From the IMG/VR virus record IMGVR_UViG_3300042691_031247: a stretch of 64,000 nucleotides of DNA. One strand, given 5' to 3'. The DNA comes from a virus (taxonomy: Duplodnaviria > Caudoviricetes). The notes under the pieces are model-generated. The model was not told the origin of the DNA, made no database searches, and saw only the letters and a list, made by a program, of their open reading frames with translations. The position numbers and the translations under genes were made by a program. Below, piece by piece: positions 1-64,000 of the stretch; the stretch's first letter is position 1, and each line of letters opens with the position of its first letter.

Positions 1-96
1 AGCGTCTTGCGCCGTGACCGCCACGAGATTACGGCACCAGTTCAGTACGGCTTCAGACGGATGATCCAGCTCAAAATTGTCATTGAGCGCTACCAT
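1..96 (-). CDS. Hypothetical protein, 5' part only (MVALNDNFELDHPSEAVLNW...), runs off the window
   Basis: ATG at 96 with GGAG about 12 nt upstream; frame open to base 1. Confidence 0.4.
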   Translation of the reverse strand, partial: MVALNDNFELDHPSEAVLNWCRNLVAVTAQDA

Positions 97-598
97 CGGG
101 TTTCGTTTCTCCGGCGGTCAAGGGTTCAGTTTTAAAGTAGTTGTTAGCAGCCGCGGCTCGAATATAGTCTCCAACCAAAAGGTCGTGACCAACCTCAATA
201 AAAGCAAATTTGCGCAGCGTATCTTCCATGTACTCAGCGTCTATAACGAGCGTGTCGGGCCACGACGCGGCTTCTTCGGCGTATAGCTGGTCTGCGCCGT
301 TGGCTTTGTAAAACTTTATTACTTCGTTACGGTAGACCTCTTCTGCCGCGGGCCCGCGTAAAATTTTGGCTTCAACAGCTGCCTCTGCGCTATTGTCGTC
401 CTCGTCGTGCACTGCGGCGAGCCGGAGCGTGCAAAGGCAGCTCGAAAGCTGCGCTATGATCGTTGACACCATTTCGTCGTCTTGGTTTTCGCAGAAGCTG
501 CTCGCAAACGCGCGCATCAGCAGTTCTTCGATAATTTCCGCTGTTACGGGTTCTTTGTTTGCAACTAGATAATGCAGCCGTAAATCTTCTTTGCTCAT
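80..598 (-). CDS. Hypothetical protein
   Basis: 172-aa ORF, ATGA overlap with the upstream gene. Confidence 0.7.
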   Translation of the reverse strand: MSKEDLRLHYLVANKEPVTAEIIEELLMRAFASSFCENQDDEMVSTIIAQLSSCLCTLRLAAVHDEDDNSAEAAVEAKILRGPAAEEVYRNEVIKFYKANGADQLYAEEAASWPDTLVIDAEYMEDTLRKFAFIEVGHDLLVGDYIRAAAANNYFKTEPLTAGETKPDGSAQ

Positions 599-969
599 AC
601 AGAACTCGCTTCTGGTTTGGGGTCAAGGCGTTTGTGCAGCTCATCGCGCCATACGTACGCCTGCGAACCGCGCCCAAACTTTGTCGGGCAATTGATATCA
701 AAATCTCGGATCATGCTAGATAGTGCGTCCAGCCCGTAGATACCGCGCATCTGGTTGACTGGCTTACCGTCAGGGCCGGAGATGGTGTATTTTGGATTGC
801 TGAAGTCACTCTCATAAATCGTGGTGCAGCGCTCGACCATTTCTTGCGGCACGCCGACATCCAAAAACGCCTGCGGGTCAAATATTGTGTGGCCGTCGCA
901 TATGTCTGCGGCGGCGAGCACAATGTGCGCAGGAATATCGGTCCATTTGATTGTGTGGGCTTCAGTCAT
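595..969 (-). CDS. Hypothetical protein
   Basis: Start moved to ATG 969 (GAGGAG upstream); in tandem with neighbours. Confidence 0.7.
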   Translation of the reverse strand: MTEAHTIKWTDIPAHIVLAAADICDGHTIFDPQAFLDVGVPQEMVERCTTIYESDFSNPKYTISGPDGKPVNQMRGIYGLDALSSMIRDFDINCPTKFGRGSQAYVWRDELHKRLDPKPEASSV

Positions 970-1201
970 CTGTTTGCTCCTCGCATACGCTGTCGTAGTT
1001 TTGCTCGTCGTCGCTGCTGAGTCCTTCGTATTCGGTAATGCAGCCGCCACACACGAGCCGATTGACCCATCGATGCGCGTCGTCTATGTCGATCTCTTCA
1101 CCGCAAGCAGCGCACGGAATAATCGTTTCTTCTAGGTAGGCTAGCAAGTTTTCTTCGTCCTGCAACGCCGCGTCTTCGATCGTGTCGTGGATAGAGTGCA
1201 T
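962..1201 (-). CDS. Small acidic protein with CxxC...CxxC (zinc-ribbon-like)
   Basis: CAAC...CGGC motifs; GGGG SD-like sequence upstream. Confidence 0.55.
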   Translation of the reverse strand: MHSIHDTIEDAALQDEENLLAYLEETIIPCAACGEEIDIDDAHRWVNRLVCGGCITEYEGLSSDDEQNYDSVCEEQTDD

Positions 1202-1215
1202 GGTTGTTCCCCTAG

Positions 1216-1250
1216 TGCCCGGGCGGTAGTTTTTGGCTACCGCCCGGGCA
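1216..1250 (-). other. Perfect 14-bp intergenic hairpin (7-nt loop), no U tract
   Basis: TGCCCGGGCGGTAG (1216-1229) / CTACCGCCCGGGCA (1237-1250). Confidence 0.75.
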
Positions 1251-1268
1251 GTGGCTTCGGTTTAGATA

Positions 1269-1892
1269 TCAGTCCCACACGCGGATGACGGTGTTGTCCC
1301 GTGCAACCGTACGCTGGTATGTGATCCTATATGTGCCCGGCGGCAACAGCCAGTCGCCGTGTTCCGGGTGCGCGATCGTGTTAGCCTTGGTCAGCCTGAG
1401 AATCGGGCCAGCGAACGCAAGCATCGTGGTGGCGTCCTGCGCCGTCAACCGGTTTGTCGGCGCGGCCGGGTTGGCGCGACGTTCGGCCCACTCGGCTTCC
1501 TGCAGCCTCGGCCGCCAGTTTGGCTCAGCCGTGGAGATCCCGCGCATTTCGGCGAGTTGTGCAAACATCTCGCGGGAGCCAGCCTCAACCGGGCTGTAAA
1601 CAGTGACGCCGTCTCCGTGAGCCAGACAGTGTCGGCTACCCTTGGTGTTACCCTCGGCAAGCTGAAGCGGAAATACCGGGTGCAGCGTACGCGTGTAGAG
1701 CAGCGGCGTTTCCGAAATGTCATCAATCTTCTGAATGTAAATATCGCCCTGTCGAACAGCATCGCCGACGCTAGCCGCTTCGGGAAACTGCTGCGGGGCG
1801 TCGTTCTTAATCTGCTCAACAGCCGCGGCGGCAGCACGAAGCCGCACCACCGTGGCATGCGAAACCGGGGCGTCAATAACAGCGGTACTCAT
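1269..1892 (-). CDS. Conserved partner of DUF6745 proteins (RQGD...LAEG...H...HPEH...LPPGxYxxxxQR)
   Basis: Motif pattern recognised; AAAGGAG SD before ATG 1892; directly downstream of the DUF6745-like gene. Confidence 0.7.
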   Translation of the reverse strand: MSTAVIDAPVSHATVVRLRAAAAAVEQIKNDAPQQFPEAASVGDAVRQGDIYIQKIDDISETPLLYTRTLHPVFPLQLAEGNTKGSRHCLAHGDGVTVYSPVEAGSREMFAQLAEMRGISTAEPNWRPRLQEAEWAERRANPAAPTNRLTAQDATTMLAFAGPILRLTKANTIAHPEHGDWLLPPGTYRITYQRTVARDNTVIRVWD

Positions 1893-1912
1893 GAAAAACT
1901 CCTTTGGTTGAT

Positions 1913-3343
1913 TTACGATGCGCCAATAACCCGAACCCGATTGGCAGCGTACGAAACACTCGAAGTGGTTCCGGCGTCTGCCATCCAACCCTGCGCTTCA
2001 ACGCAGGTGCTAATATCTCGCGGCACGCTGATGAAATACCGCCGCCCAGTAGAACGGCAGAACAACACCATCCGGTTTTGACCGGTTCTGTTTTCTTGTC
2101 CGCGCGGCGGACCAACCAGCATCTCGGTCGTGTTATCAATATCGTTAACACGGCTATCAAGAACTGGGCAGTCTGCCTCTGCAATAAAGCGATCCCAGCC
2201 GAAACGCTCGATGGCCAGCCGGCGTGTTTCCTCGTTACGAATGCGCATGATGTGCGCCGTCGACAGTTGCTCCGGTTTTGCGACAATCATCCGGCCGCCT
2301 TCGTTCATGAAGTGCCCGTCGTTGAACCATAGCTTTACGCCGTCGGCCCACTGTACTGCCGGTCCGGTCGTGCTGTGCAAATTGTCCGACTCGTTCAGCG
2401 TGATGCGCGGACGATCGGCAAGGATGATGCACGACGACTGGAACGCGGCAAACGCCGTGCAGTGGTGGAACACTTCGTGCTCCCACGTAGTCGCTGGGTC
2501 ATCGATCTTTAGGATCTTGCACAGAATTTCGGCGTCAAGCGCCTGCGGCACGCTGCCCAGAAACACGTTGTCGTCAGAAATTGAATTAGTCGGGTTGGTT
2601 AATTCGTTTATGGACATGGCGCGATTCAGCTCGCCAATTGACCCCGCGGTCGAGCTGCTGTCAAAAATAATCTTGCCGCTAATTTCAGACAGCTTCTTTT
2701 CCGTCTTTAATACTTCGTTGTTGCGCATTGTTCCGTCCCAACTACGAAAACGCTCTGTGATAGCTTCTAGGCCGACGGTGTCGTTGAGCATAGATCGAAA
2801 AAGATTGACTGTGGTGGTCAAGTTGTTTGTCTTGTACATGACAACATCTTCTACGCCTTCGCCGCGGCTTCGCCACCAGCGACGACTTAACCCAAACGAA
2901 GTCGCTATGAGGTTTTCACTTGTCATGTACTCTTCGCGAATTGCCCGCAACCACGTTCGGGTAAACTCGTTGTTTTGCATGTTGCTCCACCAACGCCGGC
3001 GATCGCTATTCCAGCCGAGCAACGAGTCTTTACGCAGCGGGATAACAAACGCGCTGTCGATTTCAAGCTCGCGACACAGCTCTTTTGCGTATGTCTTTGT
3101 CATCCGTCCGCGCACTACCGCCATCGAAATCATGAACGTCACCGGCGACGAGGCGACGTGAAAAGTTACAGGGCTTTTCTTGTGGCGGTCCGAGCGAAAA
3201 GAACCCAAACCACCGGCATAACCGGCGCGAAGTATTTCCGCAGCTTTAGCGTGGCTGGGTTGGCCGTTGTGAATAGTTTCAAGCCAGCGATTGATCGTGT
3301 TTTCAACAATGGTTCGAGTTGCTTTGGAGATCTTAGATTTCAT
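1913..3343 (-). CDS. DUF6745-like domain protein
   Basis: LHSTTGPAVQWADGVKLWFNDG motif and conserved RRLAIERFGWDRF...CRSTGRRY..VP C-terminus; start at ATG 3343 abuts the upstream stop. Confidence 0.7.
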   Translation of the reverse strand: MKSKISKATRTIVENTINRWLETIHNGQPSHAKAAEILRAGYAGGLGSFRSDRHKKSPVTFHVASSPVTFMISMAVVRGRMTKTYAKELCRELEIDSAFVIPLRKDSLLGWNSDRRRWWSNMQNNEFTRTWLRAIREEYMTSENLIATSFGLSRRWWRSRGEGVEDVVMYKTNNLTTTVNLFRSMLNDTVGLEAITERFRSWDGTMRNNEVLKTEKKLSEISGKIIFDSSSTAGSIGELNRAMSINELTNPTNSISDDNVFLGSVPQALDAEILCKILKIDDPATTWEHEVFHHCTAFAAFQSSCIILADRPRITLNESDNLHSTTGPAVQWADGVKLWFNDGHFMNEGGRMIVAKPEQLSTAHIMRIRNEETRRLAIERFGWDRFIAEADCPVLDSRVNDIDNTTEMLVGPPRGQENRTGQNRMVLFCRSTGRRYFISVPRDISTCVEAQGWMADAGTTSSVSYAANRVRVIGAS

Positions 3344-3344
3344 G

Positions 3345-3800
3345 TTAGGTAGTGGTTGCCATGATGGGGTCAACAAACCCGCAGTTCAGCGTGCTGTCTG
3401 TCAGCACAATTTCAAGTGTTTCAAAGTGATCGCAGTTCTGTACCCAGCTGCGCGGAATATTAATTACTTCGGCAAAGTCATCGCCGCCGACTAATTCTCG
3501 GCTATTGTCGTACCATTCGTCGTCGGTATTTGGGTTGCAGTGTTCGGCGTAAACAACGTGTGAGCCGCTATCGGCGCCGTCGATGTCTCGCGGAATACCG
3601 TTGCTCATGAGGTATACGCCGCGATCGTGTACAAATACCAATCCGGGGCCCACGGGCGTTCGCGTTTCCGGCGGTTCTAACCCAAGCTCGTGAAACTGCT
3701 CGTTCGTCATGTTCTCGTGCCCCATGTCAAACTCTGTTGCTGCGTACGCGTGCTCAAGACAGCGCTTCACTTCTGCAGCTTTAAACCTTAGCGTGCTCAT
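3345..3800 (-). CDS. DUF3085-like protein
   Basis: VHDRGVYLMSNG...VYAEHCNP...GGDDFAE motifs. Confidence 0.75.
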   Translation of the reverse strand: MSTLRFKAAEVKRCLEHAYAATEFDMGHENMTNEQFHELGLEPPETRTPVGPGLVFVHDRGVYLMSNGIPRDIDGADSGSHVVYAEHCNPNTDDEWYDNSRELVGGDDFAEVINIPRSWVQNCDHFETLEIVLTDSTLNCGFVDPIMATTT

Positions 3801-3999
3801 GCTTTAACTCCAGTACCACAAATCCGACAGGGTTACAGTTAGTTAGTTTTTGGGCGTCAATTTCAGCTTCAGCTTTATTGTCGTACACCTTGCCGGGTTC
3901 AACTCCGGCGTCAGCGCACGTCGGCCCGCGATAGGCCCATGGCGCGGTAGGGTTATCAAACGCTCGCGACGACTTCATGATGATGTACTTTGTTGTCAT
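3781..3999 (-). CDS. Hypothetical protein
   Basis: 72-aa ORF in a tandem array; GGAG upstream. Confidence 0.6.
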   Translation of the reverse strand: MTTKYIIMKSSRAFDNPTAPWAYRGPTCADAGVEPGKVYDNKAEAEIDAQKLTNCNPVGFVVLELKHEHAKV

Positions 4000-4354
4000 T
4001 ATTTAGCTCCTTCTCTAGATTTTTACCTCTTCCAAACATCCACGAGTCGCCGTCTTCTGGTTGAATGCGGCGCAGCCAGTCGGCAACACTGGGGATGCGG
4101 CCAAGGTCTTCGTTGACGTGCTGCTCGCCGATATACCGTACCGGCACGACGCGCCCGTCAGAATTTGTGATTACCTTTCCGAAGATTCGTTCTGATAAGA
4201 AAATCCCTTCGGAGTGGTGCCGCAGCGCGCGATGGCGAAAGTCGGCCATGTGCGCTTTTGATCCATCAAACCATTCGTGGATCGCGAGATAGTCGTCTAC
4301 CTCGCCTCCCCACTTGCGCACTGACGACAGCGCGTGATGGTACGGATGTGCCAT
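3956..4354 (-). CDS. DUF6915-like protein
   Basis: MAHPYHHALSSVRKWGG...IHEWFD.SK...RHRALRHHSEGIF signature. Confidence 0.8.
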   Translation of the reverse strand: MAHPYHHALSSVRKWGGEVDDYLAIHEWFDGSKAHMADFRHRALRHHSEGIFLSERIFGKVITNSDGRVVPVRYIGEQHVNEDLGRIPSVADWLRRIQPEDGDSWMFGRGKNLEKELNNDNKVHHHEVVASV

Positions 4355-4707
4355 TATTTTTTCGTTGCCTTTTCGATGGCAGCGATCGCGTGGTCAATAA
4401 CGAGTGTCGTATCGTTTTCTGACTCGTCATCTGGGTACAACCGCTCGTATAGCGAGATTAGTTCGTCTTTGGTGTTACGCAACGCTTCCAGTAGCTCTGG
4501 CGCTGCCGCAATTAACCGCGTGTTCGCTGCGTCTTCGTCGGTGACCCTATGGCGACCGAGCGGTTCAAACCCGTTTGGTTCGGTTGGGAAAAAGGTACAG
4601 GTGCTAAACGCAACAATACGCTGCGCGCTTGGCGAATCAATTGCGTGAGCTTCCCAATCTTCTAAATCTACATCGTTTTTTATTACCCACGGGCCGGGTG
4701 TGTGCAT
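4354..4707 (-). CDS. Phage hypothetical protein (HTPGPW...ANxRLIAAAPELLEAL family)
   Basis: Both widespread phage motifs are present. Confidence 0.75.
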   Translation of the reverse strand: MHTPGPWVIKNDVDLEDWEAHAIDSPSAQRIVAFSTCTFFPTEPNGFEPLGRHRVTDEDAANTRLIAAAPELLEALRNTKDELISLYERLYPDDESENDTTLVIDHAIAAIEKATKK

Positions 4708-4709
4708 TG

Positions 4710-4919
4710 CTAATCTCCTGTGTACAAGTCAAGCACAGAGGTCAGATCGCTGTGCGTAGCTGACCAGTCCATTTTGTCTTCGGCTATTTCAGAAGAACGT
4801 TCCCAGTCGGCGTCGTCGGGTCTGCCGAACATGTCAGCGCTCCACCAAGCCAGAATGACGCTTTTGACGCCGTTCTTTTTCGCTCGTCTTAGATTGTCAA
4901 TCGCCTCGTCAATAGTCAT
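4710..4919 (-). CDS. Hypothetical protein
   Basis: 69-aa ORF, tightly packed with neighbours. Confidence 0.6.
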   Translation of the reverse strand: MTIDEAIDNLRRAKKNGVKSVILAWWSADMFGRPDDADWERSSEIAEDKMDWSATHSDLTSVLDLYTGD

Positions 4920-5209
4920 GCTAGCGGTTTCACTGTTGGTTCGGTTGCGCCTTCTGCAAACTCTATGTCTGCTTCGCCGCGCATCACTTGTTTAATGATG
5001 TTGACGTCGTTGAGCACCCGTTCAATCCACGGCTGCATGTGCAAGATAAGCGGATCGTCAGCCGGCCGCTTTGCCTTATACATCAGCATCATCGACATAC
5101 CCACGACCACCATTTCAAGCGGCGGACAATCAGCGGCCCAGTCGGCGGTATACGTGATTGGCGCCATCACCTCTTTAACGTCTTCTTCTGTCCATTTGCC
5201 CGCGGTCAT
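4916..5209 (-). CDS. Hypothetical protein
   Basis: 97-aa ORF, 4-nt overlap with the next gene. Confidence 0.6.
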   Translation of the reverse strand: MTAGKWTEEDVKEVMAPITYTADWAADCPPLEMVVVGMSMMLMYKAKRPADDPLILHMQPWIERVLNDVNIIKQVMRGEADIEFAEGATEPTVKPLA

Positions 5210-5213
5210 TTAG

Positions 5214-5657
5214 TCACCACTCGTTTTGCGTCGTGGTTGTTTCCATGATGCGCTCGTTGTGCTGGTGCTTGATCTTGCCTTTGAGCGTATCGATTTCAAT
5301 TTCGCCAAAACTACCTTCGTTAATCTCCCAGCCGCCCGGAAGAAGATCCCAAAGCGTATCATAAAACTCCGCAAGCTTTTCGAGCGAAATAATGGGCTTG
5401 GCGTCAGTGCCGGTCGGCGTTGCGTACTGCCGCTTGAACTCTTCGAAATACACTCTGCGGCCGTTTGTCGACGATTCCATGGCTTCGCTGTCGTGCTGCG
5501 CTACGGGGTCGCAGAACCAAAAACAGAGTTCTTGAAAGTCCCCGGAATCGCCGCTGCCGTCATACGAGGCAATTACCCGTGTAACGCCAAGCGCATTAAA
5601 CAGCGGGCAGATTTCTTTAAGCGTTTCAATTGGCGTTTTGACTTTAGTTTTTGCCAT
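5214..5657 (-). CDS. DUF6878-like protein
   Basis: YDGSGDSG...GWEINEGSFG motifs; start moved to ATG 5657 just after the upstream TAA. Confidence 0.7.
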   Translation of the reverse strand: MAKTKVKTPIETLKEICPLFNALGVTRVIASYDGSGDSGDFQELCFWFCDPVAQHDSEAMESSTNGRRVYFEEFKRQYATPTGTDAKPIISLEKLAEFYDTLWDLLPGGWEINEGSFGEIEIDTLKGKIKHQHNERIMETTTTQNEW

Positions 5658-5658
5658 G

Positions 5659-6162
5659 TTAATAAGACGCGTATACCGTACAGGGTTTACCGGTTTTCTT
5701 TTCTTTCTCTTCAGCAAGCGTGACAAAATTTTGAAATGACTCGACCACGCGGTCCGCAAGGTCAGACTGTTCGCCGTATAGTCGCGCTTGCCGTTCACGT
5801 ACAGCCTCTTCGACCGTCATTGGTCTTGTTGTGTCGCTTCTGATGTTTCCGCCTTCTGCAACCTTGGCGCCAGTTGATTGCACCATATCCAAAAACATTG
5901 CAGCGAGCTTGTGCCCGTCGCCGGTCATTGCTGGTTCTGTGACACGCGTTAGCCGTTCGCGCATAACAGCGGCAGGAATCTGCGCCCGGCAATCGTCAGC
6001 CTCGAACGCTTCGCGCACAAGGATTCGCGTGGCATACGGGCCGCCGTGGTACGCTTCGCGCAGATAACCGACGTGACCGGACGTGGTAGAAAAACCAGTG
6101 GCTTGCGCCGACTTTTCTTCTTCTTCCATCCCGTCCCATTCCAGATAGATATCAATACCCAT
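5659..6162 (-). CDS. Conserved hypothetical protein (MGIDIY...GHVGYLREAYHG)
   Basis: 167-aa ORF, 1-nt overlap with the upstream gene. Confidence 0.75.
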   Translation of the reverse strand: MGIDIYLEWDGMEEEEKSAQATGFSTTSGHVGYLREAYHGGPYATRILVREAFEADDCRAQIPAAVMRERLTRVTEPAMTGDGHKLAAMFLDMVQSTGAKVAEGGNIRSDTTRPMTVEEAVRERQARLYGEQSDLADRVVESFQNFVTLAEEKEKKTGKPCTVYASY

Positions 6163-6389
6163 TACTTGCTCCTCTTCTTTTTGCAGTTGAGCGCCGCGGT
6201 CATGTCAGCTTTGGATGCGTCGCTGATATCGAGCGAGCAGCCGCTGTCTTTGTGTGTCAGCACTATTTTTTTATCGAGTTTTCTGACGTCAGCAAGCACC
6301 GCAGCCGTTTCAGCGGCCGCCTCGTCTACAGCCTCGATGACGTATGTTTCTGCGCGGGTGCGAGAAACGCGAACATGGAAATAAGGCAT
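6162..6389 (-). CDS. Hypothetical protein
   Basis: 75-aa ORF; AGAGGA SD upstream. Confidence 0.6.
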   Translation of the reverse strand: MPYFHVRVSRTRAETYVIEAVDEAAAETAAVLADVRKLDKKIVLTHKDSGCSLDISDASKADMTAALNCKKKRSK

Positions 6390-6398
6390 TGTGTCCTC

Positions 6399-6445
6399 TG
6401 TAAATAAAGAGAGGGCGCCGGGAGAACTAGCCCCCGGCGCCCTCT
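6399..6445 (-). terminator. Rho-independent terminator downstream of 6478..6810
   Basis: 13-bp stem (6410-6422 / 6433-6445) followed on the minus strand by CTTTATTT. Confidence 0.7.
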
Positions 6446-6477
6446 ACGACTATCTGTTGTTAGTTACTGCCGGCAGT

Positions 6478-6810
6478 TCACTGGCAGCAGCAGCCGCGCG
6501 GGCCGCGGCAGCTACGCGTGCGGATTACGCGGGCCGGCGCTGTCACAACGCGCACCGGAACCTCTACGACGGCGCGGGTTACCGTGCGGGTCTTCTCGAT
6601 CGTCCGACCGAACAGACCATTGCGGCACGAGCTGCGGCACGAGCTTTCCGTGCAGCAGGTGCCGTTGGCGCACGCCGGTGCGGCCTCGGCAGCTACCGCC
6701 GGAGCGGCAGCAGCGGGCTGCACGAGCACGCTCTGCGGTTCGCCGGCATCGCCAGCAAACGCCACGGACGAAACAAACGCAAGGACCACAGCTGCAAAAC
6801 AAGACTTCAT
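6478..6810 (-). CDS. Small exported Cys-rich, Ala/Arg-rich protein with signal peptide
   Basis: MKSCFAAVVLAFVSSVAFA signal peptide (AFA cleavage motif), CANGTCC..C..C, GLFGR, terminal CRGPRGCCCQ; GGAG SD. Confidence 0.7.
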   Translation of the reverse strand: MKSCFAAVVLAFVSSVAFAGDAGEPQSVLVQPAAAAPAVAAEAAPACANGTCCTESSCRSSCRNGLFGRTIEKTRTVTRAVVEVPVRVVTAPARVIRTRSCRGPRGCCCQ

Positions 6811-6879
6811 GTCAATCTCCTTGAACTACCGAACAAATACTACCGCACGCGCGGCAATAACCTGCTCAGCGATACTCTT

Positions 6880-6907
6880 TGTATAGCGGAGCAGGATTTT
6901 GTTGCAA
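6880..6907 (-). promoter_or_regulatory. Candidate sigma70-like promoter TTGCAA-N16-TATACA
   Basis: AT-rich 144-bp gap upstream of 6478..6810; hexamers read directly. Confidence 0.5.
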
Positions 6908-6954
6908 CCCCAAAATCAAAAACAGATTCTGGGGAATTTTGTCAAAATGCGTAA

Positions 6955-7221
6955 TTATTCACGCACTACGTGAACGTTGTACCAGCGCATTTTATCGTTG
7001 AGCCACTTGGCCTCGGCGGCGAGTGCGTCTGCGCGCGACTCAAAGTTACGCAGAGACGGCCCGCCAACTGGCGATAAATCAGCAATCCACTCTCCCGGAA
7101 TTGTCGGGTCAGGCTCAACATGACTGGCACGTTTGATATCAAGCTCTCCCAGCGCTTTTAGGTTGATCTCTTCGCCATAGAGACATTGCGCTGAGCCGTT
7201 GGGGCGAATGTATAGCTGCAT
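6955..7221 (-). CDS. Small conserved protein (IxRASHVEPD...WxADLSPVGGP), usual partner of the DUF1257/DUF2997/AAA module
   Basis: Motif recalled from planctomycete gene clusters. Confidence 0.7.
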   Translation of the reverse strand: MQLYIRPNGSAQCLYGEEINLKALGELDIKRASHVEPDPTIPGEWIADLSPVGGPSLRNFESRADALAAEAKWLNDKMRWYNVHVVRE

Positions 7222-7225
7222 TGTG

Positions 7226-8227
7226 TTACATCGACATCAGACGTCGAGAGGGTATTAGCTCGTTCATGTTAACCGCTCGCGGCAACTGCGCCACGGCTGC
7301 AGGCGTATACAGGTTTTGTCGTCGCCGCTCAGACCTTGACACGTTGTACGCATTAAATTGCGTAACGTTGTCAATGATTGCTCCCGCAAACAACGCGTCT
7401 TCATGCACGTCTTCGCGAGCGTAGGTTTGCGACGGGCCATCATACGTAGGGCGAAAAATGATATGACCGCCGGCTGCAACAGCATGGCCGCGAAACGCTA
7501 ACAGGGCATTGATTTGTTCGACGTTTGCAATGATGGCGTAGTCGACAACTTTTAGACGTGACCGTTCAAACGTCGGGTCGTTCTGCTCACGCGAGTAGAT
7601 CGACACTTGCATCAGTTTGCTGCCCACGACCTGCGCTTTCCCGGCAATAGTGACAAAGCCGCGAAGCACAGAACTGCTGATTTGCGCTTCGCCGCCGACG
7701 TACGCCTGACCTTCGAGCGACGTTTGAATTGCAATCGCTTTTCCCGAAATACCGCAGTGACCGCGTAACGTGCAACTGATAACGCGGGCGCTGTCTCTGA
7801 TAAACGCGTTTTCGTACGCAGTTGTCGAGCCAGAAACAACACCGCCGTATACACGGGCTTCGTTTGAGAACTGGCAGTCGTCCATTACTCGGGCCCGGCC
7901 GCTGACGCTCGCAAACTGGTTCAGTTTTACGTTTCCGCTGACGTGCGCGTATCCGCAGATCTGGGCCCGATTATGCACGCGTACGTTGCCCTCAACACGG
8001 GCGTTGTGATACACCTGCGCTAGCTTGTAAACAAAAACCGAATCGGCAACTTTTGCGGTATCTGCTACCCAGCCCTCGCCGTTAACGTGTCGATGTGCAA
8101 ACACGCGGCCGTTACCGTCTTTGAAATCATGCTTTGATGCCCGCTTCTTTTTTGGTTTGACCGCGGTCATCACCGCTGCCGCCGCATCCAGCACGGCGAC
8201 AGCGCTGTCTTTTTGTTCCTCCATCAC
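7226..8227 (-). CDS. Hexapeptide-repeat (left-handed beta-helix-like) protein
   Basis: Six-residue periodicity (A[RKQ]VxxxA[RKQ][VI]xG); GGWVA-like lead-in GEGWVADTAKV. Confidence 0.75.
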   Translation of the reverse strand: MMEEQKDSAVAVLDAAAAVMTAVKPKKKRASKHDFKDGNGRVFAHRHVNGEGWVADTAKVADSVFVYKLAQVYHNARVEGNVRVHNRAQICGYAHVSGNVKLNQFASVSGRARVMDDCQFSNEARVYGGVVSGSTTAYENAFIRDSARVISCTLRGHCGISGKAIAIQTSLEGQAYVGGEAQISSSVLRGFVTIAGKAQVVGSKLMQVSIYSREQNDPTFERSRLKVVDYAIIANVEQINALLAFRGHAVAAGGHIIFRPTYDGPSQTYAREDVHEDALFAGAIIDNVTQFNAYNVSRSERRRQNLYTPAAVAQLPRAVNMNELIPSRRLMSM

Positions 8228-9171
8228 GACTCCATCGGAAGGACACGCCGTCTGGGCGCGTTTGTGATCAGACTGTCGAGCGCGGTTTTAACCTCGCCCA
8301 TCTGCTGCGTCAGGTTTTGCCGTAGGTTGTTGTTTTTACGCAAATCCTTGACGTCGATACCGGACACAAGCTCGTTGGCTTGCCTAATGAGTCTTTCTAG
8401 TTGCGCATTCGAACGCACGTTCATGTCCTGAAAATTCTCGTAAAACTCTTTGAAGTTCTCGATAGCCGAAACCTTGAACGTCTTTTTGGTTCCGTCTGGC
8501 TCGTCGGTCAGCCGCTCGATGAGATGCGAGATCATGTCTTGCAGCTGCTCGGCAAACGCGTTCTCGGCCATGACTACAGCCGTCTCAAACCGTTGTTGGA
8601 CGCGTTGCTGTTCCTGTTGATACAGTTCGGGATTAAACGTCATTAGGTAGTTTGGCGGCTCAACGGGCGGGTACTCCCAGCGAAGATCAAATACACCATC
8701 TAGTGACGCCGGGTAGTCCGCAGGGTTGTATAGATCACCCAGCTTTTCGCGGGCGGCGGTTTTTAACGTTTCGTATTCTAGTTGCAGGTTGGCGGCCGCG
8801 GCGACCAGCTGTTCTTTGTACTCGCGCATCCGATCTTCAAACGCGCCGATGTCCGCCTGTTTGATTAGTCGCACGCCGTCCTGCGGATATGGCAACGTGA
8901 CGGCTCTCCAGTACGCCGCCGCCTGACTCTTGAGCGTGGTTAGCACGCGATATGTCGTGTTCTTTGTATCGATAAGGCGCTTGGACGCTGTGACCAGATC
9001 GGTGGCGGCATGAAACGTATCAGCGGCTTGCTTGGTCTGCGCATCAGATAGCTTGCGCTGCGTCCCTAACCACGAGAACGACAGCTTGACGGCGCCCATC
9101 GTCTGGCGCAAGTCGCTAGCTGTCTGCTCCACTGTCGTGTTTTCTTCGATCGTTGTGTCGGTTGTGGACAT
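8224..9171 (-). CDS. Helical/coiled-coil protein (DUF3150-like) of the AAA module
   Basis: VKLSFSWLG...LPYPQDGVRLI...ADYP...F.VSAIENF..F...NVRSN; long amphipathic helices. Confidence 0.7.
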   Translation of the reverse strand: MSTTDTTIEENTTVEQTASDLRQTMGAVKLSFSWLGTQRKLSDAQTKQAADTFHAATDLVTASKRLIDTKNTTYRVLTTLKSQAAAYWRAVTLPYPQDGVRLIKQADIGAFEDRMREYKEQLVAAAANLQLEYETLKTAAREKLGDLYNPADYPASLDGVFDLRWEYPPVEPPNYLMTFNPELYQQEQQRVQQRFETAVVMAENAFAEQLQDMISHLIERLTDEPDGTKKTFKVSAIENFKEFYENFQDMNVRSNAQLERLIRQANELVSGIDVKDLRKNNNLRQNLTQQMGEVKTALDSLITNAPRRRVLPMES

Positions 9172-9771
9172 TCAGTCTCCTTCTTCGTCTGTGTCGAGTT
9201 CTTCTTCAATTGTTTGCTCCACCCACTCGTCGATTGCAAACGCTTGTACAAGTCTCTTTGGTAATTTTTCTAGTTCGGCCAGATTGTCGGGTACGCTAAA
9301 CTCTTGAATGTCGCCGTTGCGGTAAATTCCGCAAAAACCTACGCCCGGCTCAAAGCAATAGGCTGTGATATCAAAACCCTCAACAATGCGCAGGTGGTCA
9401 AAGAACTGAATTGGCGGTGACCAAGCTGAATCGAAAACGAGTGTGATGTGTTTGGATTTTGGCGGCACGCGCTTTGGCGTTTGATCCGTTTCGCGCCCGA
9501 CGTCCCATTTCGTTCCCCAATGACCGACCTGCCAGTCGTACCAGTTTTTCGCCCCGTACAACTCAATGTTTTGCCGCTCTTGCGTCTCTAACGCGAGTTG
9601 CGCGTCAGACCCGGTAGGGCCCGCACAACCAGCTATAGTCGCTTTTAACTCGGCGGGGCACGGCAGAAATGTGCCCATAAGACAACCACTGTTCCATGCG
9701 CGCACTAACTTGTGCAACTGCTGCGGGTCGGTGTGTTTAAACGTAACTTTGTTGGCGCACCAGTTAGGCAT
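9172..9771 (-). CDS. DUF1281/YubB ferredoxin-like domain protein
   Basis: MPNWCAN start (ATG 9771), NWYDW...WGTKWDV, FDSAWSPP, EPGVGFCG. Confidence 0.8.
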   Translation of the reverse strand: MPNWCANKVTFKHTDPQQLHKLVRAWNSGCLMGTFLPCPAELKATIAGCAGPTGSDAQLALETQERQNIELYGAKNWYDWQVGHWGTKWDVGRETDQTPKRVPPKSKHITLVFDSAWSPPIQFFDHLRIVEGFDITAYCFEPGVGFCGIYRNGDIQEFSVPDNLAELEKLPKRLVQAFAIDEWVEQTIEEELDTDEEGD

Positions 9772-9782
9772 GTGTTCGCGCT

Positions 9783-9829
9783 GCAAGCCGCAGCTGCGGG
9801 GCTGTAACACCCCGCAGCCGCAGTCTTGC
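9783..9829 (-). other. Long intergenic hairpin (19 bp, two G.U pairs, one bulge)
   Basis: Minus strand GCAAG(A)CTGCGGCTGCGGGG / CCCCGCAGCTGCGGCTTGC; mismatches are G.U only on the minus strand. Confidence 0.65.
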
Positions 9830-9835
9830 TAGCAC

Positions 9836-11320: not shown

Positions 11321-11362
11321 TTGTGACCTTTGTAATTTGTTTTGTGAGAGAACCGGCTATTG

Positions 11363-11554: not shown

Positions 11555-11556
11555 GT

Positions 11557-11922: not shown

Positions 11923-11923
11923 G

Positions 11924-53419: not shown

Positions 53420-56400
53420 CTATCTGTGGTAAGAACCGGTTCCGCCCGCCATGTCGACTGGCGTACCGTCTGGCGTCTGTTCCATGTGGCGCCCGCTGGC
53501 CTGCATTACGGCCTCTGACAGGCCCTTTAATACAAGTGTGCCGGTAAGCTGCATGTCTCTCCCGCGCTCGTTGTCTTGAACGCCGCGCTGGGCACGCAAC
53601 GCTTGCTCGGCGTTTTGCTGCGCAACACTCGTCGCCTCGCGACCAGATGACACAAACGCTGCTTGTGTCTGCCGGATCGCTGTTACACCGGTAGACGCGC
53701 CGCTAGCCCACGGCGGCTCGCCGCCAGCGCTTGGAGCGTCGCCGCCTATGCTCGCCATCGGATCAATTTGTTGCTGCGCCGGATCAAGCGTTTTGATTTC
53801 GTCGCGCCGCTGGCGCAAGAAATCGTATTGCTTTTTGTCGTCACTAGACAGTTGCAGTTCGCTTGTAAACCAACCGGACTTTCCGCGCGATGCAATCTCT
53901 TCCATCTGCTTGGTAACAGTTCCAAGCGGATCGCCTGATTCGAGTTCTTTGCGTCGCTGACTCAGCGCGTCATATTTTTTGCGGTCTTCTTTTCCTAGCT
54001 GCAGTTCGCTAGTAAACCAGCCAGACTTACCGCGAGACGCAATCTCTTCCATCTGCTTGGTAACAGTTCCAAGCGGATCGCCGGATGTAATCTCGTCTTT
54101 GCGGCGCTGCAACGACGTGTATTTTTCTTTGTCTTCGTCGGATAGCTGTATTTCGCTGGTGAACCACCCCGGTTTGCCGCGCGACGCAATATCCTCCATC
54201 TGCTGCGTAACAAGCTGCAGCTGCTCTTGCTGCGACGGTTGACCCTGCGCACCGCCGCCGCCAGATAGCAAATCCATCATCTGCTGCAGCCCGCTCGAAT
54301 GCAGGGCTGCAGCTTGTTTAGGATCAAGATTTTGTGAAGTAAGTCCGCCGGCCGCGGGCGCTGGCGCGCCAGACTTTACGCGTTCCATTACTTTGGTCGC
54401 TTGATGTTCGGCCAACGTTTTGTGCAGGCGCGAGACGTTCGCGCGCTCTTCTTTCGACAAGAACATGCTGGTGCGCGCGCCGTCCAGCCCGTCTAAGCCC
54501 TTTTGCTGATCTTCTGGCGAGAACTTATCAAATAGCTTGCGCGCTTCGCCGCCGGGGAGCGACAGCAGCTGCTTTCGCTTATCCGTGTCGTACATCGCCG
54601 ACGTAAAGTTATCCGCGGTTGGATCTTTACTAATTTCGTCGACAACTTTTTGCTGCGCGTCTGTTAGTTTAGCGTCATCTGCGGCAGACGGTGTTGCCAG
54701 CTCTTTCTTTCTTTTCTGGAGTTCTTCCCACCGCTGCTGGTCCTCGTCGTTGCTGAATCGCATGTCAGTAGCCATCCAGCCGCGGTCTGTACCGCGTTTG
54801 CGCAGCGCCTCAATTTGAGCGTCGACGCTAGCGGGGTCGTCCATGTTGGTCTGCTTGGAACGAAACGTTTCCAACCCCTGCTCTTTGGCCGTTTCACGTG
54901 CTTTTGCGTAAACGTTGTTAAGCTGCTGCACGCCACGGTCGCCAGAGCCAAATACTGCTTCCAAGTGTTTTTTGGCTTTCTCTTCGGCGCGGGCTGGGAC
55001 CGAACCCTCGCTTTCAAAGTGCTTGATCATTTCTTCCTTCAAGCGCTTTGACATAAACTGCGCGCGATCTTCCGGTGTGTCGTCAACTTGGTTACCCATT
55101 TCGTTGATTGCAACGCCGGCGGCGACATCGGCCGTTTTGCGCATAAGATCTTTACGTCGGGCGTCGAACTGTTCGGCAGTTACGTTTTCCGGTTTAAGCG
55201 CAGCATACGCACGCTTATCGTAATTTTGTTCGAGCTGGTCGAACGTCTGCTTGCTAACGTCACGCGTAACCTCGTTGGTCTTGGCTAACGGTCGTTCTTG
55301 CGCCTCTGTGACTGTTTGCGCCGTTTGATTTAATCCGGCCGCAGCTAGCCCGCCGAACTCTTGCGACGCGCGTAATGCTTTTGACATAGCGCGGGCTTCT
55401 TCTTGTTTTGCGTCACTGAGTTTGCCGCCGAAGAAACCGCCCTGCATTTTCTTTTCAAATGCCGTTGTATCTTTATCCAGCGCAGCTTGAGCGAAAGCAT
55501 CGATTTGCTTCTGGTCAGCTTTCGGACCCAACACAGACTCGGCCATAGCGCGCGCGCCAGCCGTGACGTCTTCTTTTTTGCCGGTGTTATACGCTTTGAT
55601 GACCGCTGTAGACCGCCGGCGTTGCGCTTCGTTTTGTTCTTTTTGCGCAGGCGTATCACCCGCAGCCGTGTTACCGACCGCCATTTGAGCGCGGGCGTAG
55701 AGCGTCTGCTGCTGCTCGGCAGTCAATTCTTCGTCCGGCTTGAACCCTGCCATTGTCTTTAGTTTTTTCGCTTCCGGGCCAGTCGGATTTTTTTGCGCCT
55801 CTTCGTGCAGCTTTTGAATCTGCTCGGGTGTGATAGTAGCAGACGTATACATCTTGGCGGCTGCTACTAAACCTTCCTGCATGTCGGGCGCATACTTCTG
55901 CAGCATCTCGTCTTCCGACATGACGTTTAAGACGTGCTTTAATGATTCCGCGCGCGTACGCGTATTGTCCGACGAAATGTTATTTAATTCGTCGCCGACC
56001 CGTTGCGAGAACGTAGACTCGGTTCCCAGCGCGGCCTTATTGAAACGCTCGGCGCGACGCTCGTCGACCTTTTGCTTCGCATCAGCGTTCGCGAGTGCGC
56101 CGCGATCGCGGATTTGCTTCTGCCCCTCAATATTAACGCCCGTGCGCTCTTGCAGGATCGCGCTGGATTCCGTGTAGAGTGCGCGCATGTTTTCTTTGCG
56201 CGTTTCCGGGTCGGCGCCGTAAAGGGCGTTGAAGTATTTTTCAGCCCGGGCGTCGGCTGCGCGTTTGCCGAGATTACCACCGTCTTTACTCTGGAAGTAA
56301 TTCGACAGCTCTTCTTTGCCGCGCTTTTCGAGCGTCGCGTCAACCTCTTCGCTGCTCATGTCTTTCGTCTCGTTCATCACGACATCGAGCATGCGATTAG

Positions 56401-58306
56401 CGAGGTTAGGCGCAATCGTCTTTTTCTGTTCGGCAAACTCCTCGTCTGACATACCAGCCGGCTTAATCTTGTTGAAGTCTTCGCTGGCCATGGTGCCTTG
56501 CATAACCGCAGATTGGCGCTGCGCCAGCCGGCGCTGGTGCATGTAGGTTTGACCCTTGTAGGCATAGCCCTCCTGCACGAACGGCTGTAACCCCTGCCGA
56601 TCCATCTGGTACGCGCGGAAGAGGCGGTCCGACGCGCCGGATTCTTTTGCGAGTTGGTACATAGAGCCTACGCCGCCCTCGCCAACCATTTGCGCAAGAT
56701 TAAATTTTTGTCCCTTATACTCGAACTCTTCTTGATTGTTTCGGTATGCCTGTACGGCGGCTTCCATTTTGGTGCCGCGGTACTTGTCCGGGTTTTCTGT
56801 CACGAGCCTATTCAGCACAGCAATACTCTGCCCGCCGGCGCTCGCATCACCGCGGCGAGAGAAGTTAGCCATCACTTCATCGGCTTCTGCTTTTTGGAGC
56901 TTACCCGGGAGCATCTTGTTATACGCCCCGGAGTCGTGCATTGCTTGGCTACGCAGCATGTTTGTGTGCGCGCGCTCCAAACCGCTTTCGCGCGAGAGGC
57001 CCATCTGCACGCCCATCTCCTGCTCGTCACGCACGATCTTGTTTAATTCGGTCAGGCTGGTGTTAGAGTCTCGGGCCGCCATGCGCACTTGCCGCACCAG
57101 CTTTTCGAGTTTGCCCGGGGCTAGCGACGACGCGCCACCAGTTAAATGCTCAAGGCTTTTAATAAGCGCTTGAACCGGCGCGTTCTCTTGGCCATTGTCG
57201 CCAAAGATCTCGCGAATCGCGGCGATACTGCCCGTGTAGTCTTTAAGCGCTTTCGTGGTTCGCTGGGCGTCAACGGCGTTCGCGGCGGTGCTAAAACCGT
57301 CCATCTGCTCAATTTCAGAGACCGACTTGGCGCGCGGATCTTTGGCGGTGTGCCTGTCGATTTCTTGGAACGTCGAGCTGATGCGCTTCTTGTAGTCGCC
57401 CATCTTGTCGGCGAGCATGATCTTTTGTTCTTCTTCGGTGGCGTTCGCATAGTCGAAATTGCGCGACATTAAATCGTCATGCCCAAACTGCTCGGCAAGT
57501 CGGGTGATTGTCTTGTCGTCGCGCTTCGACGCGCTCATGGCTTTAACGCGCTCTGCCGGCGTGAGCGCGCCCAGCGCTTGCGGCAGCTGCCCCTTCTGGA
57601 ACAGGTGCTCCATCATTTCGCCGCTCGCTACGGCACCAAACCCGCGCATCTCGTTGAGGTTGGCGTCGGGGCCGTACATGTTTTGATATACATTCTGCGA
57701 AAACTGCCGCGTCGAGTTTTCGGACATCCGGCTGTCGCCTGTCGCGGCGTCGGCCCGGTAAAAGCCGATCCTGTTCGCGGCTGCGGCAGTAGCTGACGGG
57801 TCGCCGCGACGGCCGAACATAAGTCCTTCGTATGTTTCGGCGCCGATCTGGCTGGCGGCAAATTGTTTAAAAATTGGATTGTTTAATACGCGCGCCCCTG
57901 TGTTAGCCTGCTCGCGATCAAGCTGTGTGATTGGTTTGCCGCCGTTTGCGATCTGCTGCGCGGCTAGTATTTTTTTGGCGACCTCTTCGTTGCCGGCCAT
58001 GTGCGCGGCGTTAATAACCTGCGCGCCACCGCGCTGATACTGCGCAGCCGTGTGTTGGTCCATCACGTTCTGGCCGGGCATCTGGTGCATTAAAAACGCA
58101 TCTGGGCCGAAGGCGCCCTGCACCAGCTGCGGGCCGTACATGTTGGCCAGATAGCCAAACGCGTCGTCTACGTTTCTAGGATTCGTAAACGGCGAATAGG
58201 TCGGCGGGGCGTAGCGCAGAGCGTCTATAGACTGCGCCGCCGCCATGTCGTACTCGGACGGCGCGTTGCCAAAAAAGCCCGGATGAATGTACTGCGAAGC
58301 CTGCAT
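53420..58306 (-). CDS. Tape measure protein
   Basis: 1628-aa helical A/Q/E/K-rich ORF after the chaperone pair and before the hub. Confidence 0.85.
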   Translation of the reverse strand: MQASQYIHPGFFGNAPSEYDMAAAQSIDALRYAPPTYSPFTNPRNVDDAFGYLANMYGPQLVQGAFGPDAFLMHQMPGQNVMDQHTAAQYQRGGAQVINAAHMAGNEEVAKKILAAQQIANGGKPITQLDREQANTGARVLNNPIFKQFAASQIGAETYEGLMFGRRGDPSATAAAANRIGFYRADAATGDSRMSENSTRQFSQNVYQNMYGPDANLNEMRGFGAVASGEMMEHLFQKGQLPQALGALTPAERVKAMSASKRDDKTITRLAEQFGHDDLMSRNFDYANATEEEQKIMLADKMGDYKKRISSTFQEIDRHTAKDPRAKSVSEIEQMDGFSTAANAVDAQRTTKALKDYTGSIAAIREIFGDNGQENAPVQALIKSLEHLTGGASSLAPGKLEKLVRQVRMAARDSNTSLTELNKIVRDEQEMGVQMGLSRESGLERAHTNMLRSQAMHDSGAYNKMLPGKLQKAEADEVMANFSRRGDASAGGQSIAVLNRLVTENPDKYRGTKMEAAVQAYRNNQEEFEYKGQKFNLAQMVGEGGVGSMYQLAKESGASDRLFRAYQMDRQGLQPFVQEGYAYKGQTYMHQRRLAQRQSAVMQGTMASEDFNKIKPAGMSDEEFAEQKKTIAPNLANRMLDVVMNETKDMSSEEVDATLEKRGKEELSNYFQSKDGGNLGKRAADARAEKYFNALYGADPETRKENMRALYTESSAILQERTGVNIEGQKQIRDRGALANADAKQKVDERRAERFNKAALGTESTFSQRVGDELNNISSDNTRTRAESLKHVLNVMSEDEMLQKYAPDMQEGLVAAAKMYTSATITPEQIQKLHEEAQKNPTGPEAKKLKTMAGFKPDEELTAEQQQTLYARAQMAVGNTAAGDTPAQKEQNEAQRRRSTAVIKAYNTGKKEDVTAGARAMAESVLGPKADQKQIDAFAQAALDKDTTAFEKKMQGGFFGGKLSDAKQEEARAMSKALRASQEFGGLAAAGLNQTAQTVTEAQERPLAKTNEVTRDVSKQTFDQLEQNYDKRAYAALKPENVTAEQFDARRKDLMRKTADVAAGVAINEMGNQVDDTPEDRAQFMSKRLKEEMIKHFESEGSVPARAEEKAKKHLEAVFGSGDRGVQQLNNVYAKARETAKEQGLETFRSKQTNMDDPASVDAQIEALRKRGTDRGWMATDMRFSNDEDQQRWEELQKRKKELATPSAADDAKLTDAQQKVVDEISKDPTADNFTSAMYDTDKRKQLLSLPGGEARKLFDKFSPEDQQKGLDGLDGARTSMFLSKEERANVSRLHKTLAEHQATKVMERVKSGAPAPAAGGLTSQNLDPKQAAALHSSGLQQMMDLLSGGGGAQGQPSQQEQLQLVTQQMEDIASRGKPGWFTSEIQLSDEDKEKYTSLQRRKDEITSGDPLGTVTKQMEEIASRGKSGWFTSELQLGKEDRKKYDALSQRRKELESGDPLGTVTKQMEEIASRGKSGWFTSELQLSSDDKKQYDFLRQRRDEIKTLDPAQQQIDPMASIGGDAPSAGGEPPWASGASTGVTAIRQTQAAFVSSGREATSVAQQNAEQALRAQRGVQDNERGRDMQLTGTLVLKGLSEAVMQASGRHMEQTPDGTPVDMAGGTGSYHR
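53800..54235 (-). repeat. Three 147-bp (49-aa) tandem repeats in the tape measure C-terminus
   Basis: VT(Q/K)QMEEIASRGKSGWFTSELQL...; TGGTAACAGTTCCAAGCGGATCGCC at 53911 and 54058. Confidence 0.9.
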
Positions 58307-62639: not shown

Positions 62640-62693
62640 TTTTAATCACCAAGTTGGCGTGTTACGGGCGCGAACGCCCCGGGCGGCTGCCCA

Positions 62694-62735
62694 ATACAAT
62701 AAACGGCGGCTGCGAAAACCGCAACCGCCGTTTAT
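62694..62735 (-). terminator. Terminator-like hairpin after the tube gene
   Basis: 16-bp stem ATAAACGGCGGTTGCG/CGCAGCCGCCGTTTAT with one G.U on the minus strand, then TGTATT. Confidence 0.7.
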
Positions 62736-62763
62736 GTTTGTTCCATCACATCAACGTGCCGTA

Positions 62764-63195
62764 TCAAGACACGTCAATATCACTGCAAATAAAGCTCAGA
62801 TTCTCGTTGATTACGACGTCTTGCGCCGTGACGCTGGCGCCGATCGACGTCAGTGTCGCGTCTTTTACGTCGTAATTTACAGAGCCACCGCCCTTGCACG
62901 CGATGCCTTGCAGCATCATGTTCTTGGGTTGGCACATGTTGCCGTAGGTTTGAATCAACGTCTGGAAATCTCCGTTACCGGCCATCACGCGCGTAAGCTG
63001 GCACTGCCCCTGCCGACGGTTACCAACGTAATACACGTTGTTGCTGCCGATCTCGTACAGGAAGTTTACGGTACGGTTCACCGTAAACTGGAACTGCTGC
63101 ACGAGTACGGCCTTAGATCCGAGCGTTAAAACAACATCTTCTGCGCGCACGGCGCCAGTATGTGTTTGCGCTGCACTCTGCCACGGTACTGCCAT
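62764..63195 (-). CDS. Tail tube protein
   Basis: 143 aa directly after the sheath; LVQQFQFTVNR.V..LYEIGS...YYV. Confidence 0.75.
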   Translation of the reverse strand: MAVPWQSAAQTHTGAVRAEDVVLTLGSKAVLVQQFQFTVNRTVNFLYEIGSNNVYYVGNRRQGQCQLTRVMAGNGDFQTLIQTYGNMCQPKNMMLQGIACKGGGSVNYDVKDATLTSIGASVTAQDVVINENLSFICSDIDVS

Positions 63196-63237
63196 AATTC
63201 ACCTGCTGTTGTTGGGTTGGTACTTACAATTACGCGA

Positions 63238-64000
63238 TTAGACAACTAAGTGCAGCTCAATGTTGTTGAGCGGCGCCGGGACAGTCAGATCAAGCACAAT
63301 CTCGATACGATCCTTAAGCAGCGGATGAATCTGCAGCTTACGAATCGCGCCGTCGATGAGTTGCGAACCCAGCTCCTCGGTATTACCGTTGCCCTTGAGG
63401 AAATCGATAATCGCCGTGACCTCGTAACGTAACCGACGTACCATGCCCGGCTGCGCGTTCGTGCGGCCGATGAACGGCTTCAGACGGCGGTAGAACAGGT
63501 ACGACATGCTGTCGACGTTACGACGAATCATCTCTTCGCGGCGGTTCAGATCGAGGTTGTCGGTCGTCAAGGCGTGACGCGTGTGCGGCGTGCCGTCCTT
63601 GTCTTCCGTCACGATCCAGACGCCGGCCTCAGCCATGCGGTTAAGCTGGGTTTCGTTGAGGTACTTGTAGGAGCGCGAGAAGTCGTCGAACCCGGCGACC
63701 TCGACGTTCGTCAGCGGCTGGTGGGGCACCACACCGGAGACGAGACCGGCCAGAGCGGCCGCGAGGTAGTAACCGGGCTGAATCGTGCCGGCTTCGCCGA
63801 CCTGATCCGGCCACACGGCGCACACGCGACGGTTCGAAAGCGAACCGCCTTGTTGTGCAACGTCTTCAACGATCTCGTTGCGGTTGCGGTTATGCCAGAC
63901 CTCGACACGCTGCGGAACTGTAACAGCGGCGTCAGCGCCGGAGTACAGCAGCAGGGTCGATTCCGAGATAACCTGATCAACCACGTACTCTTCGTACTGC
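63238..64000 (-). CDS. Contractile tail sheath protein, C-terminal part (continues beyond the window)
   Basis: GYYLAAALAG...PHQPLTN..., RHALTT, EEMIRRNVD, TVPAPLNNIELHL ending; high GC3. Confidence 0.88.
   Translation of the reverse strand, partial: QYEEYVVDQVISESTLLLYSGADAAVTVPQRVEVWHNRNRNEIVEDVAQQGGSLSNRRVCAVWPDQVGEAGTIQPGYYLAAALAGLVSGVVPHQPLTNVEVAGFDDFSRSYKYLNETQLNRMAEAGVWIVTEDKDGTPHTRHALTTDNLDLNRREEMIRRNVDSMSYLFYRRLKPFIGRTNAQPGMVRRLRYEVTAIIDFLKGNGNTEELGSQLIDGAIRKLQIHPLLKDRIEIVLDLTVPAPLNNIELHLVV

Follow-up and report, generated by a model that had tools for sequence, protein, structure and literature searches.

The 64,000-nucleotide stretch analyzed here (IMG/VR record IMGVR_UViG_3300042691_031247, positions 1 to 64,000; hereafter the window) is about one third of the ~200-kb genome of an uncultured, contractile-tailed lake phage. 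It has a G+C content of 55%, carries one tRNA, and encodes ~74 of its 80 called genes on the minus strand. Two of its features, a module of seven genes that includes a Ycf46-like AAA+ ATPase and a protein in which the RNA polymerase alpha C-terminal domain (alpha-CTD) is repeated four times in tandem, have their nearest cellular relatives almost exclusively in the Planctomycetota, and they point to a member of that phylum as the probable host. Planctomycetota are abundant in lakes and are known for their unusual envelopes and cell biology.

The phage identity of the window is anchored by a large terminase (TerL) of the GpA type (15625-17550, plus strand; Pfam GpA_ATPase PF05876, E 5e-13), a gene that marks a DNA-packaging virus, as opposed to an injection system or tailocin. 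Among 50,697 phage records, its nearest cultured relatives are the terminases of Salmonella phage Arash (31% identity) and Vibrio phage D69 (27%). Arash and the Vibrio phages D69, D148, and D181 are cultured phages of ~180 to 187 kb that resemble the window in having a GpA-type TerL and a similar genome size; their hosts, however, are Gammaproteobacteria, and no cultured phage gives a tblastn match to the tube, Baseplate_J, or alpha-CTD proteins of the window. A search of 5.8 billion proteins found an identical copy of the alpha-CTD protein on contigs of up to 204,487 bp, and IMG/VR contigs of 193,815 and 204,621 bp carry tail genes that are 89 to 97% identical to those of the window. The stretch at 15625-25410 is present in 20 public sequencing runs from 12 studies, mostly freshwater or lake metagenomes. 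The best explanation for these data is that the window belongs to a phage of lytic type with a contractile tail, whose ~200-kb genome is common in lakes. The first-pass annotation had called the window a large myophage, and the presence of TerL, sheath, tube, and Baseplate_J genes, with relatives on contigs of 193,815 to 204,621 bp, bears this out; the features that it reported as seen (the terminase, the contractile tail genes, and the named motifs) are all present at or near the places it gave. Instead of a free phage, the region could in principle be part of a bacterial chromosome, as a prophage or as a contractile injection system derived from a phage, but this is very improbable. The modeled tail tube does resemble the tubes of the Photorhabdus virulence cassettes (PVC) and the antifeeding prophage (AFP) as well as it resembles phage tubes, but the window encodes a terminase and, in all of its 64 kb, no bacterial housekeeping genes; its relatives are stand-alone viral contigs of ~194 to 205 kb; and a search of 401 planctomycete genomes yielded no related TerL.

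The AAA module lies on the minus strand and begins with a DUF1257 (Ycf35-like) gene (11557-11922; weak Pfam match, E 0.0042), whose product is 46 to 62% identical to its syntenic counterparts in 61 loci of planctomycete type. It is followed by DUF2997 (11363-11554; PF11211, E 2.4e-16; syntenic in 66 loci), the Ycf46-like AAA+ ATPase (9836-11320; PF00004, E 1.4e-27; 52 to 60% identity to Planctomycetota loci), a helical DUF3150-like partner (8224-9171; 39 to 48% identity, syntenic in 49 loci) whose position is held by an annotated DUF3150 gene on a Manganitrophus plasmid, and, as the last module gene, a small protein that contains the motif RASHVEP (6955-7221; 47 to 61% identity, syntenic in 41 loci). 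Two further module genes, DUF6878 (5214-5798; Pfam E 4.8e-13) and DUF6915 (3956-4354; Pfam E 2.3e-48), are displaced from the others on the same strand, and the DUF6915 protein is up to 74.5% identical to a planctomycete copy located between DUF2997 and the AAA gene. Local tblastn searches found all seven genes recurring jointly in planctomycete loci, and Pfam calls on a metagenomic copy of the module agree with this seven-gene set. The phage gene order is the planctomycete order except for two phage-specific inserts and the displaced DUF6878 and DUF6915. When positions 1-20000 were compared at the DNA level with the 401 planctomycete genomes, with two candidates scored per genome, only the AAA module (64 to 71% nucleotide identity), DUF6915 (69%), and the tRNA matched. 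DUF6915 was considered as a marker of recent transfer and rejected: it evolves slowly, being 71 to 97% identical within the phage group and ~74% identical to planctomycete copies, and its tree gave no resolution.

Some 94 phage-type relatives of the AAA protein have identities of 60 to 98%, many of them on ~200-kb contigs, and below these come matches at 55 to 58% that include NCBI proteins from metagenome-assembled genomes (MAGs) titled "Pirellulales" and "Planctomycetia." We surveyed the family across 185,579 species by a pattern scan of one genome per species and confirmed 249 relatives, with ~70 of the best 80 titled Planctomycetota. Those titles include Pirellulales, Planctomycetaceae, Thermoguttaceae, Isosphaeraceae, Phycisphaeraceae, "Kuenenia," Rhodopirellula, Fuerstiella, and Anatilimnocola sp. 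NA78, a complete genome. The cluster of DUF1257, DUF2997, AAA, helical, and RASHVEP genes had been taken as planctomycete in the first-pass annotation, and both this survey and the syntenic planctomycete loci uphold that assignment. Five loci among the relatives carry other labels (Nanopelagicales, Nealsonbacteria, Desulfovibrionaceae, Nitrosomonas, and Chitinophaga) and nest in shallow planctomycete clades; in the tree they stand beside planctomycete copies that are almost identical to them, and mis-binning of these contigs is probable. One of the best 80 matches comes from an unclassified bin and is a piece of phage at 94% identity; we return to it below.

Within the planctomycetes the module is accessory, with a strong AAA match in 3 of 121 sampled Planctomycetota genomes, and it is often multicopy. 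Some planctomycete MAGs hold three to five copies: one has five (loci L032, L033, L034, L047, and L058, with L033 and L034 giving the same scores for every module gene) and another has three (L007, L014, and L028). This pattern suggests an element that is mobile or was recently amplified. Outside the phylum, plasmids (Nostoc, Manganitrophus, Bacillus, and others) often carry members of the AAA family, and some phages do too, always at identities of 40% or less; the nearest homologues in cultured phages are ~30 to 32% identical. A plasmid of Candidatus Manganitrophus (Nitrospirota; CP114554.1, 115311-118017; locus L116) carries AAA, DUF1257, DUF2997, and DUF3150 genes together in another order, beside JAB and Fic genes. 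The Ycf35 (DUF1257)/DUF2997/Ycf46-like AAA/DUF3150 modules of cyanobacteria, plastids, and plasmids have the same domain set as the phage, but those modules show at most 40% identity and another gene order, whereas the phage matches the planctomycete order; the phage module and some planctomycete loci also have DUF6878, DUF6915, and the RASHVEP protein. As a mobile-element cassette the AAA module is widespread, and it would act as a Ycf46-type remodeling machine with dedicated partners, one that the phage shares with planctomycete accessory loci.

In an unrooted tree of the AAA proteins, the phage clade (support 99) and the planctomycete clade (support 99) are mutual nearest neighbors. When four plasmid sequences served as the outgroup, a quick tree put the phage clade next to a freshwater planctomycete subclade as its sister (support 96). 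In the approximately unbiased (AU) test, however, the better tree keeps all planctomycete rows as one clade (log-likelihood +24.6, p-AU 0.76), so our claim stops at sisterhood of the phage and planctomycete clades and names neither a donor lineage nor a direction of transfer.

The second gene set consists of a single gene (24283-25410, minus strand), whose product contains four stretches matching RNA_pol_A_CTD (PF03118, E 1.4e-46) and which includes the literal strings FGETS and NFGAAT. Among the top 120 matches in the search of 5.8 billion proteins, the phage-type relatives are the protein itself, one at 76% identity, and two shorter ones; the other top matches are proteins of ~440 to 455 amino acids that combine two alpha-CTDs with tetratricopeptide repeats (TPRs). 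All nine of the alpha-CTD plus TPR matches that bear an organism name are from Planctomycetes, Planctomycetia, Pirellulales, or Thermoguttaceae. The query has matches in 119 of the 121 sampled Planctomycetota genomes, at ~3 places in each, and the best of these (45 to 68 bits, 48 to 59% identity) lie in open frames of 440 to 530 amino acids. The two control samples, 61 genomes from the phylum of the Nitrosomonas-titled MAG and 61 from a third phylum, instead gave one RpoA-sized match per genome, at 21 to 36 bits and 29 to 44% identity. In Anatilimnocola, the match to the tandem alpha-CTD protein is at 54%, that to RpoA at 36%. The planctomycete alpha-CTD plus TPR proteins (two PF03118 domains, then TPRs) are accordingly 48 to 59% identical to the phage domains and closer to them than is the RpoA of the same genome; the phage protein differs from them in having four domains and no TPR part. 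No homologue of the alpha-CTD protein was found in GenBank phages.

The best explanation of this pattern is that the four-domain protein was built from the alpha-CTD of the planctomycete-specific alpha-CTD plus TPR family, and not from RpoA. The first-pass annotation had taken the FGETS and NFGAAT loop as a planctomycete signature; the strings are there, and the nearest nonphage relatives are indeed planctomycete. The alpha-CTD protein is not a core gene of the phage group but is confined to the nearest relatives of this phage. Its gain is separate from that of the AAA module and points to the same phylum, and its narrow spread within the phage group suggests that it was acquired more recently than the module.

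We conclude that the host is probably a freshwater member of the Planctomycetota. This call rests on two independent gene sets, the AAA module and the alpha-CTD protein, the best cellular matches of both falling in Planctomycetota and not in another phylum, and on a weak tRNA signal. The tRNA-Thr (UGU) at 19659-19731 (minus strand; ARAGORN; Rfam 69.8 bits) is 85 to 86% identical (up to 93 bits) to the best planctomycete tRNAs versus 79 to 83% (65 bits) in one control phylum, a small margin between samples of unequal size. The G+C content of the window (55%, against a median of 60% in the planctomycete loci) is compatible with such a host, not specific to it. Because the similarities are old (42 to 60% identity), the call is made at the level of the phylum only. 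The whole phage group keeps the AAA module, and its only close cellular relatives are accessory, often multicopy planctomycete loci; the AAA and alpha-CTD genes would have been exchanged during infection of planctomycetes, which would place the present host in that phylum. The alpha-CTD protein may act on host transcription as a decoy for the factors or DNA sites bound by alpha-CTD-type proteins of the host.

Several results weigh against a planctomycete host. The identities to planctomycete genes, 52 to 60% for the AAA protein and 42 to 59% for the alpha-CTDs, are those of old similarities; the module occurs in only ~2 to 4% of planctomycete species; and the AU test lent no support to a phage AAA clade nested inside the planctomycetes. 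No related prophage or binned phage contig was found in the 401 planctomycete genomes, where one TerL matched at 28%, and no CRISPR spacer-like match was found between positions 1-20000 and the same genomes, a weak negative given that two candidates per genome were scored. Two deposited genomes carry other labels: the 94%-identical phage fragment lies in a 5.3-Mb bin of more than 760 contigs, "bacterium WB9_2_064" (G466), that falls outside the planctomycete phylum sample and whose S4 and L17 ribosomal proteins cluster with "Proteobacteria/Pseudomonadota bacterium" MAGs, and an 80%-identical relative of 203 kb was deposited as Sphingorhabdus sp. Finally, four of the six clues offered in the first-pass annotation failed or did not discriminate. 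Of its proposal of a planctomycete host, then, the part that rested on the AAA cluster and the alpha-CTDs stands, while the clues from CsrA, the K/A-rich protein, the GLFGR peptide, and the FEV..F..PYV protein fell away and no spacer, prophage, or co-binning support was obtained.

The conflicting labels are the chief support for a host in another phylum, such as the "Proteobacteria"-type organism of WB9_2_064 or a Sphingorhabdus-like alphaproteobacterium, with the planctomycete-like genes being relics of ancient exchange or arriving by way of plasmids and mobile elements. WB9_2_064 is the sole species-representative genome with a near-identical contig, the AAA family is widely plasmid borne across phyla, and the identity to planctomycete genes is only 42 to 60%. 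Yet the two labels contradict each other, and the bin itself belongs to a phylum sample distinct from both the Planctomycetota and the Pseudomonadota-type samples. On contigs C329, C86, C287, C391, and C761 it combines bacterial ribosomal-protein genes with fragments of no fewer than three different phages of this group; three of its contigs encode a pyrimidine-dimer glycosylase (83%, 57%, and 55% identity), and a DUF6745 protein is present at 79%. Such a mixture, spread over more than 760 contigs, is typical of a chimeric bin, and we read it as one, not as a host signal. The phylum of WB9_2_064 and the Pseudomonadota-type sample, moreover, give only RpoA-level alpha-CTD matches, and no close AAA module from those phyla appears in the top 80. 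We therefore regard a host in another phylum as unlikely.

A nonplanctomycete member of the Planctomycetes-Verrucomicrobia-Chlamydiae group, for example one of the Verrucomicrobiota, might share these gene families, and the control phyla sampled directly were the Pseudomonadota-type one and that of WB9_2_064. The searches across all phyla, however, returned no Verrucomicrobiota title or name among the best 80 AAA loci or among the named proteins in the top 120 alpha-CTD matches, and we judge such a host quite improbable.

The discarded clues can be stated briefly, the corresponding proteins all being present as described in the first-pass annotation. CsrA (26135-26326, minus strand, within an open reading frame at 26036-26326 with a Thr/Ser-rich tail; PF02599, E 3.8e-20) was rejected as a host marker: its best matches reach 47 bits (35 to 53% identity) in 61 Planctomycetota genomes versus 41.5 bits (35 to 50%) in 61 control genomes of the Pseudomonadota-type sample, so it does not discriminate. 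Eight CsrA-like matches occur in each of Anatilimnocola sp. NA78 (G001), G008, and G048, a large expansion of paralogues. The protein with an acidic tract and a K/A-rich C-terminal domain (12614-13492, minus strand) resembles planctomycete clusters in its Atlas language-model features (0.90 to 0.91), but by sequence the domain matched 1 of 61 planctomycete genomes, weakly (E 4e-4), and it too was set aside. The Cys-rich GLFGR peptide, which has a signal peptide (6478-6810, minus strand), gave one marginal match in 61 Planctomycetota genomes (E 0.006), so its supposed planctomycete kinship was not reproduced, and the FEV..F..PYV protein at 13963 has viral clusters as its nearest Atlas neighbors. 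The DUF3085 and Pyr_excise proteins had no match in three planctomycete genomes, and the DUF6745 protein had one partial match, at 39%, in Anatilimnocola.

Metagenomic phages predicted to infect Planctomycetes are already known, and their members are few. Our phrase searches of the literature found no isolated planctomycete phage, and a 2025 review of a century of Planctomycetota research (PMC12673574) mentions phages only once, in connection with phage genes carried by a plasmid. Kavagutti et al. 2019 (PMC6802176) and Jaffe et al. 2022 (PMC9040852) assigned uncultured freshwater phages to Planctomycetes by gene content and/or CRISPR loci. By their description, those phages are like the present one in coming from lake metagenomes and having a predicted Planctomycetes host; some of the phages of Jaffe et al. 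have spacer support, unlike this phage so far. The AAA module is found in one planctomycete MAG that Jaffe et al. obtained from Lake Fargette (L011 and L019). An abundant, nearly complete genome with a defensible phylum-level host call is a target for isolation, for linking phages and hosts in lakes, and for genetic tools.

A bolder proposal, which we advance tentatively and consider doubtful as a whole, is that the entire widespread group of ~200-kb lake phages is specific to Planctomycetota, that the four-fold alpha-CTD protein of this member is a decoy, copied from a planctomycete-only family of alpha-CTD regulators, by which it redirects host transcription, and that the group shares its AAA+ remodeling machine with the mobile elements of its hosts. 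If the whole group is indeed specific to Planctomycetota, it would be the first large, well-sampled phage lineage for the phylum.

The tail genes, all on the minus strand, complete the picture of a contractile phage. The C-terminal 253 amino acids of the sheath are encoded at 63238-64000 (PHROG 2839 and 279, E 4e-9), the gene running past the end of the window; in a 97%-identical relative (L100:717-3953) the full-length sheath has 1,078 amino acids and matches the same PHROGs. The genes for the major capsid and portal proteins fall outside the window. The next gene downstream (62764-63195) encodes the tail tube. This protein has 317 homologues among 1.84 billion representatives, and an AlphaFold2 model built from 79 of them (predicted local distance difference test, 85) matches in Foldseek the tubes of PVC, AFP, phage 812, and further contractile systems (template modeling [TM] score 0.60 to 0.70, E 1e-6); on the strength of this model we assign it the Hcp/gp19 fold. 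By sequence the tube family has no Pfam, PHROG, or PDB match, and it is missing from the PHROG library, which matched none of the 79 members tested despite the 317 homologues. A protein of 1,628 amino acids (53420-58306), without a PHROG match, is a candidate tape measure by its size and its position between the tube and baseplate genes. In the baseplate block, a product of 158 amino acids (48682-49158) is probably, if weakly, gp25-like, that is, a baseplate wedge protein or sheath initiator: its AlphaFold2 model (predicted local distance difference test, 76.5) has T4 gp25 as the top Foldseek matches (E 1.6e-3 to 7.5e-3; TM score 0.43 to 0.53), followed by GPW-like 2ia7 and TssE. Next to it is a Baseplate_J-like wedge protein (46959-48674; Pfam PF04865, E 5.3e-8).

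Two collagen-repeat tail fibre genes, of 300 and 1,510 amino acids, occupy 30887-36324 (Pfam Collagen, E 5.8e-36); their matches to PHROG tail fibre families (E 2e-74) are partly repeat driven. Most proteins of the tail block have no Pfam or PHROG match, and the tube and Baseplate_J proteins have no tblastn match in the 50,697 phage records, in keeping with the earlier description of the tail genes as so divergent that they are assigned mostly by order.

Three smaller features deserve mention. A sigma-70-like factor with regions 3 and 4 (49630-50472, minus strand; Pfam Sigma70_r3 E 4.6e-10, region 4 weak; phrog_351) is encoded within the baseplate block, between a 540-amino-acid gene and the gp25-like and Baseplate_J genes, and it overlaps at its start with the last part of the preceding gene. 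A stand-alone Big_1 (invasin-type Ig-like) domain protein of 92 amino acids is encoded just upstream of the collagen-like fibre genes (30190-30468, minus strand). Two products are extremely acidic, a protein of 123 amino acids that is mostly Asp/Glu (20209-20580, minus strand) and the protein at 12614-13492, in which a D/E tract of ~100 amino acids precedes the K/A-rich domain; these two could be DNA mimics or histone-like partners.

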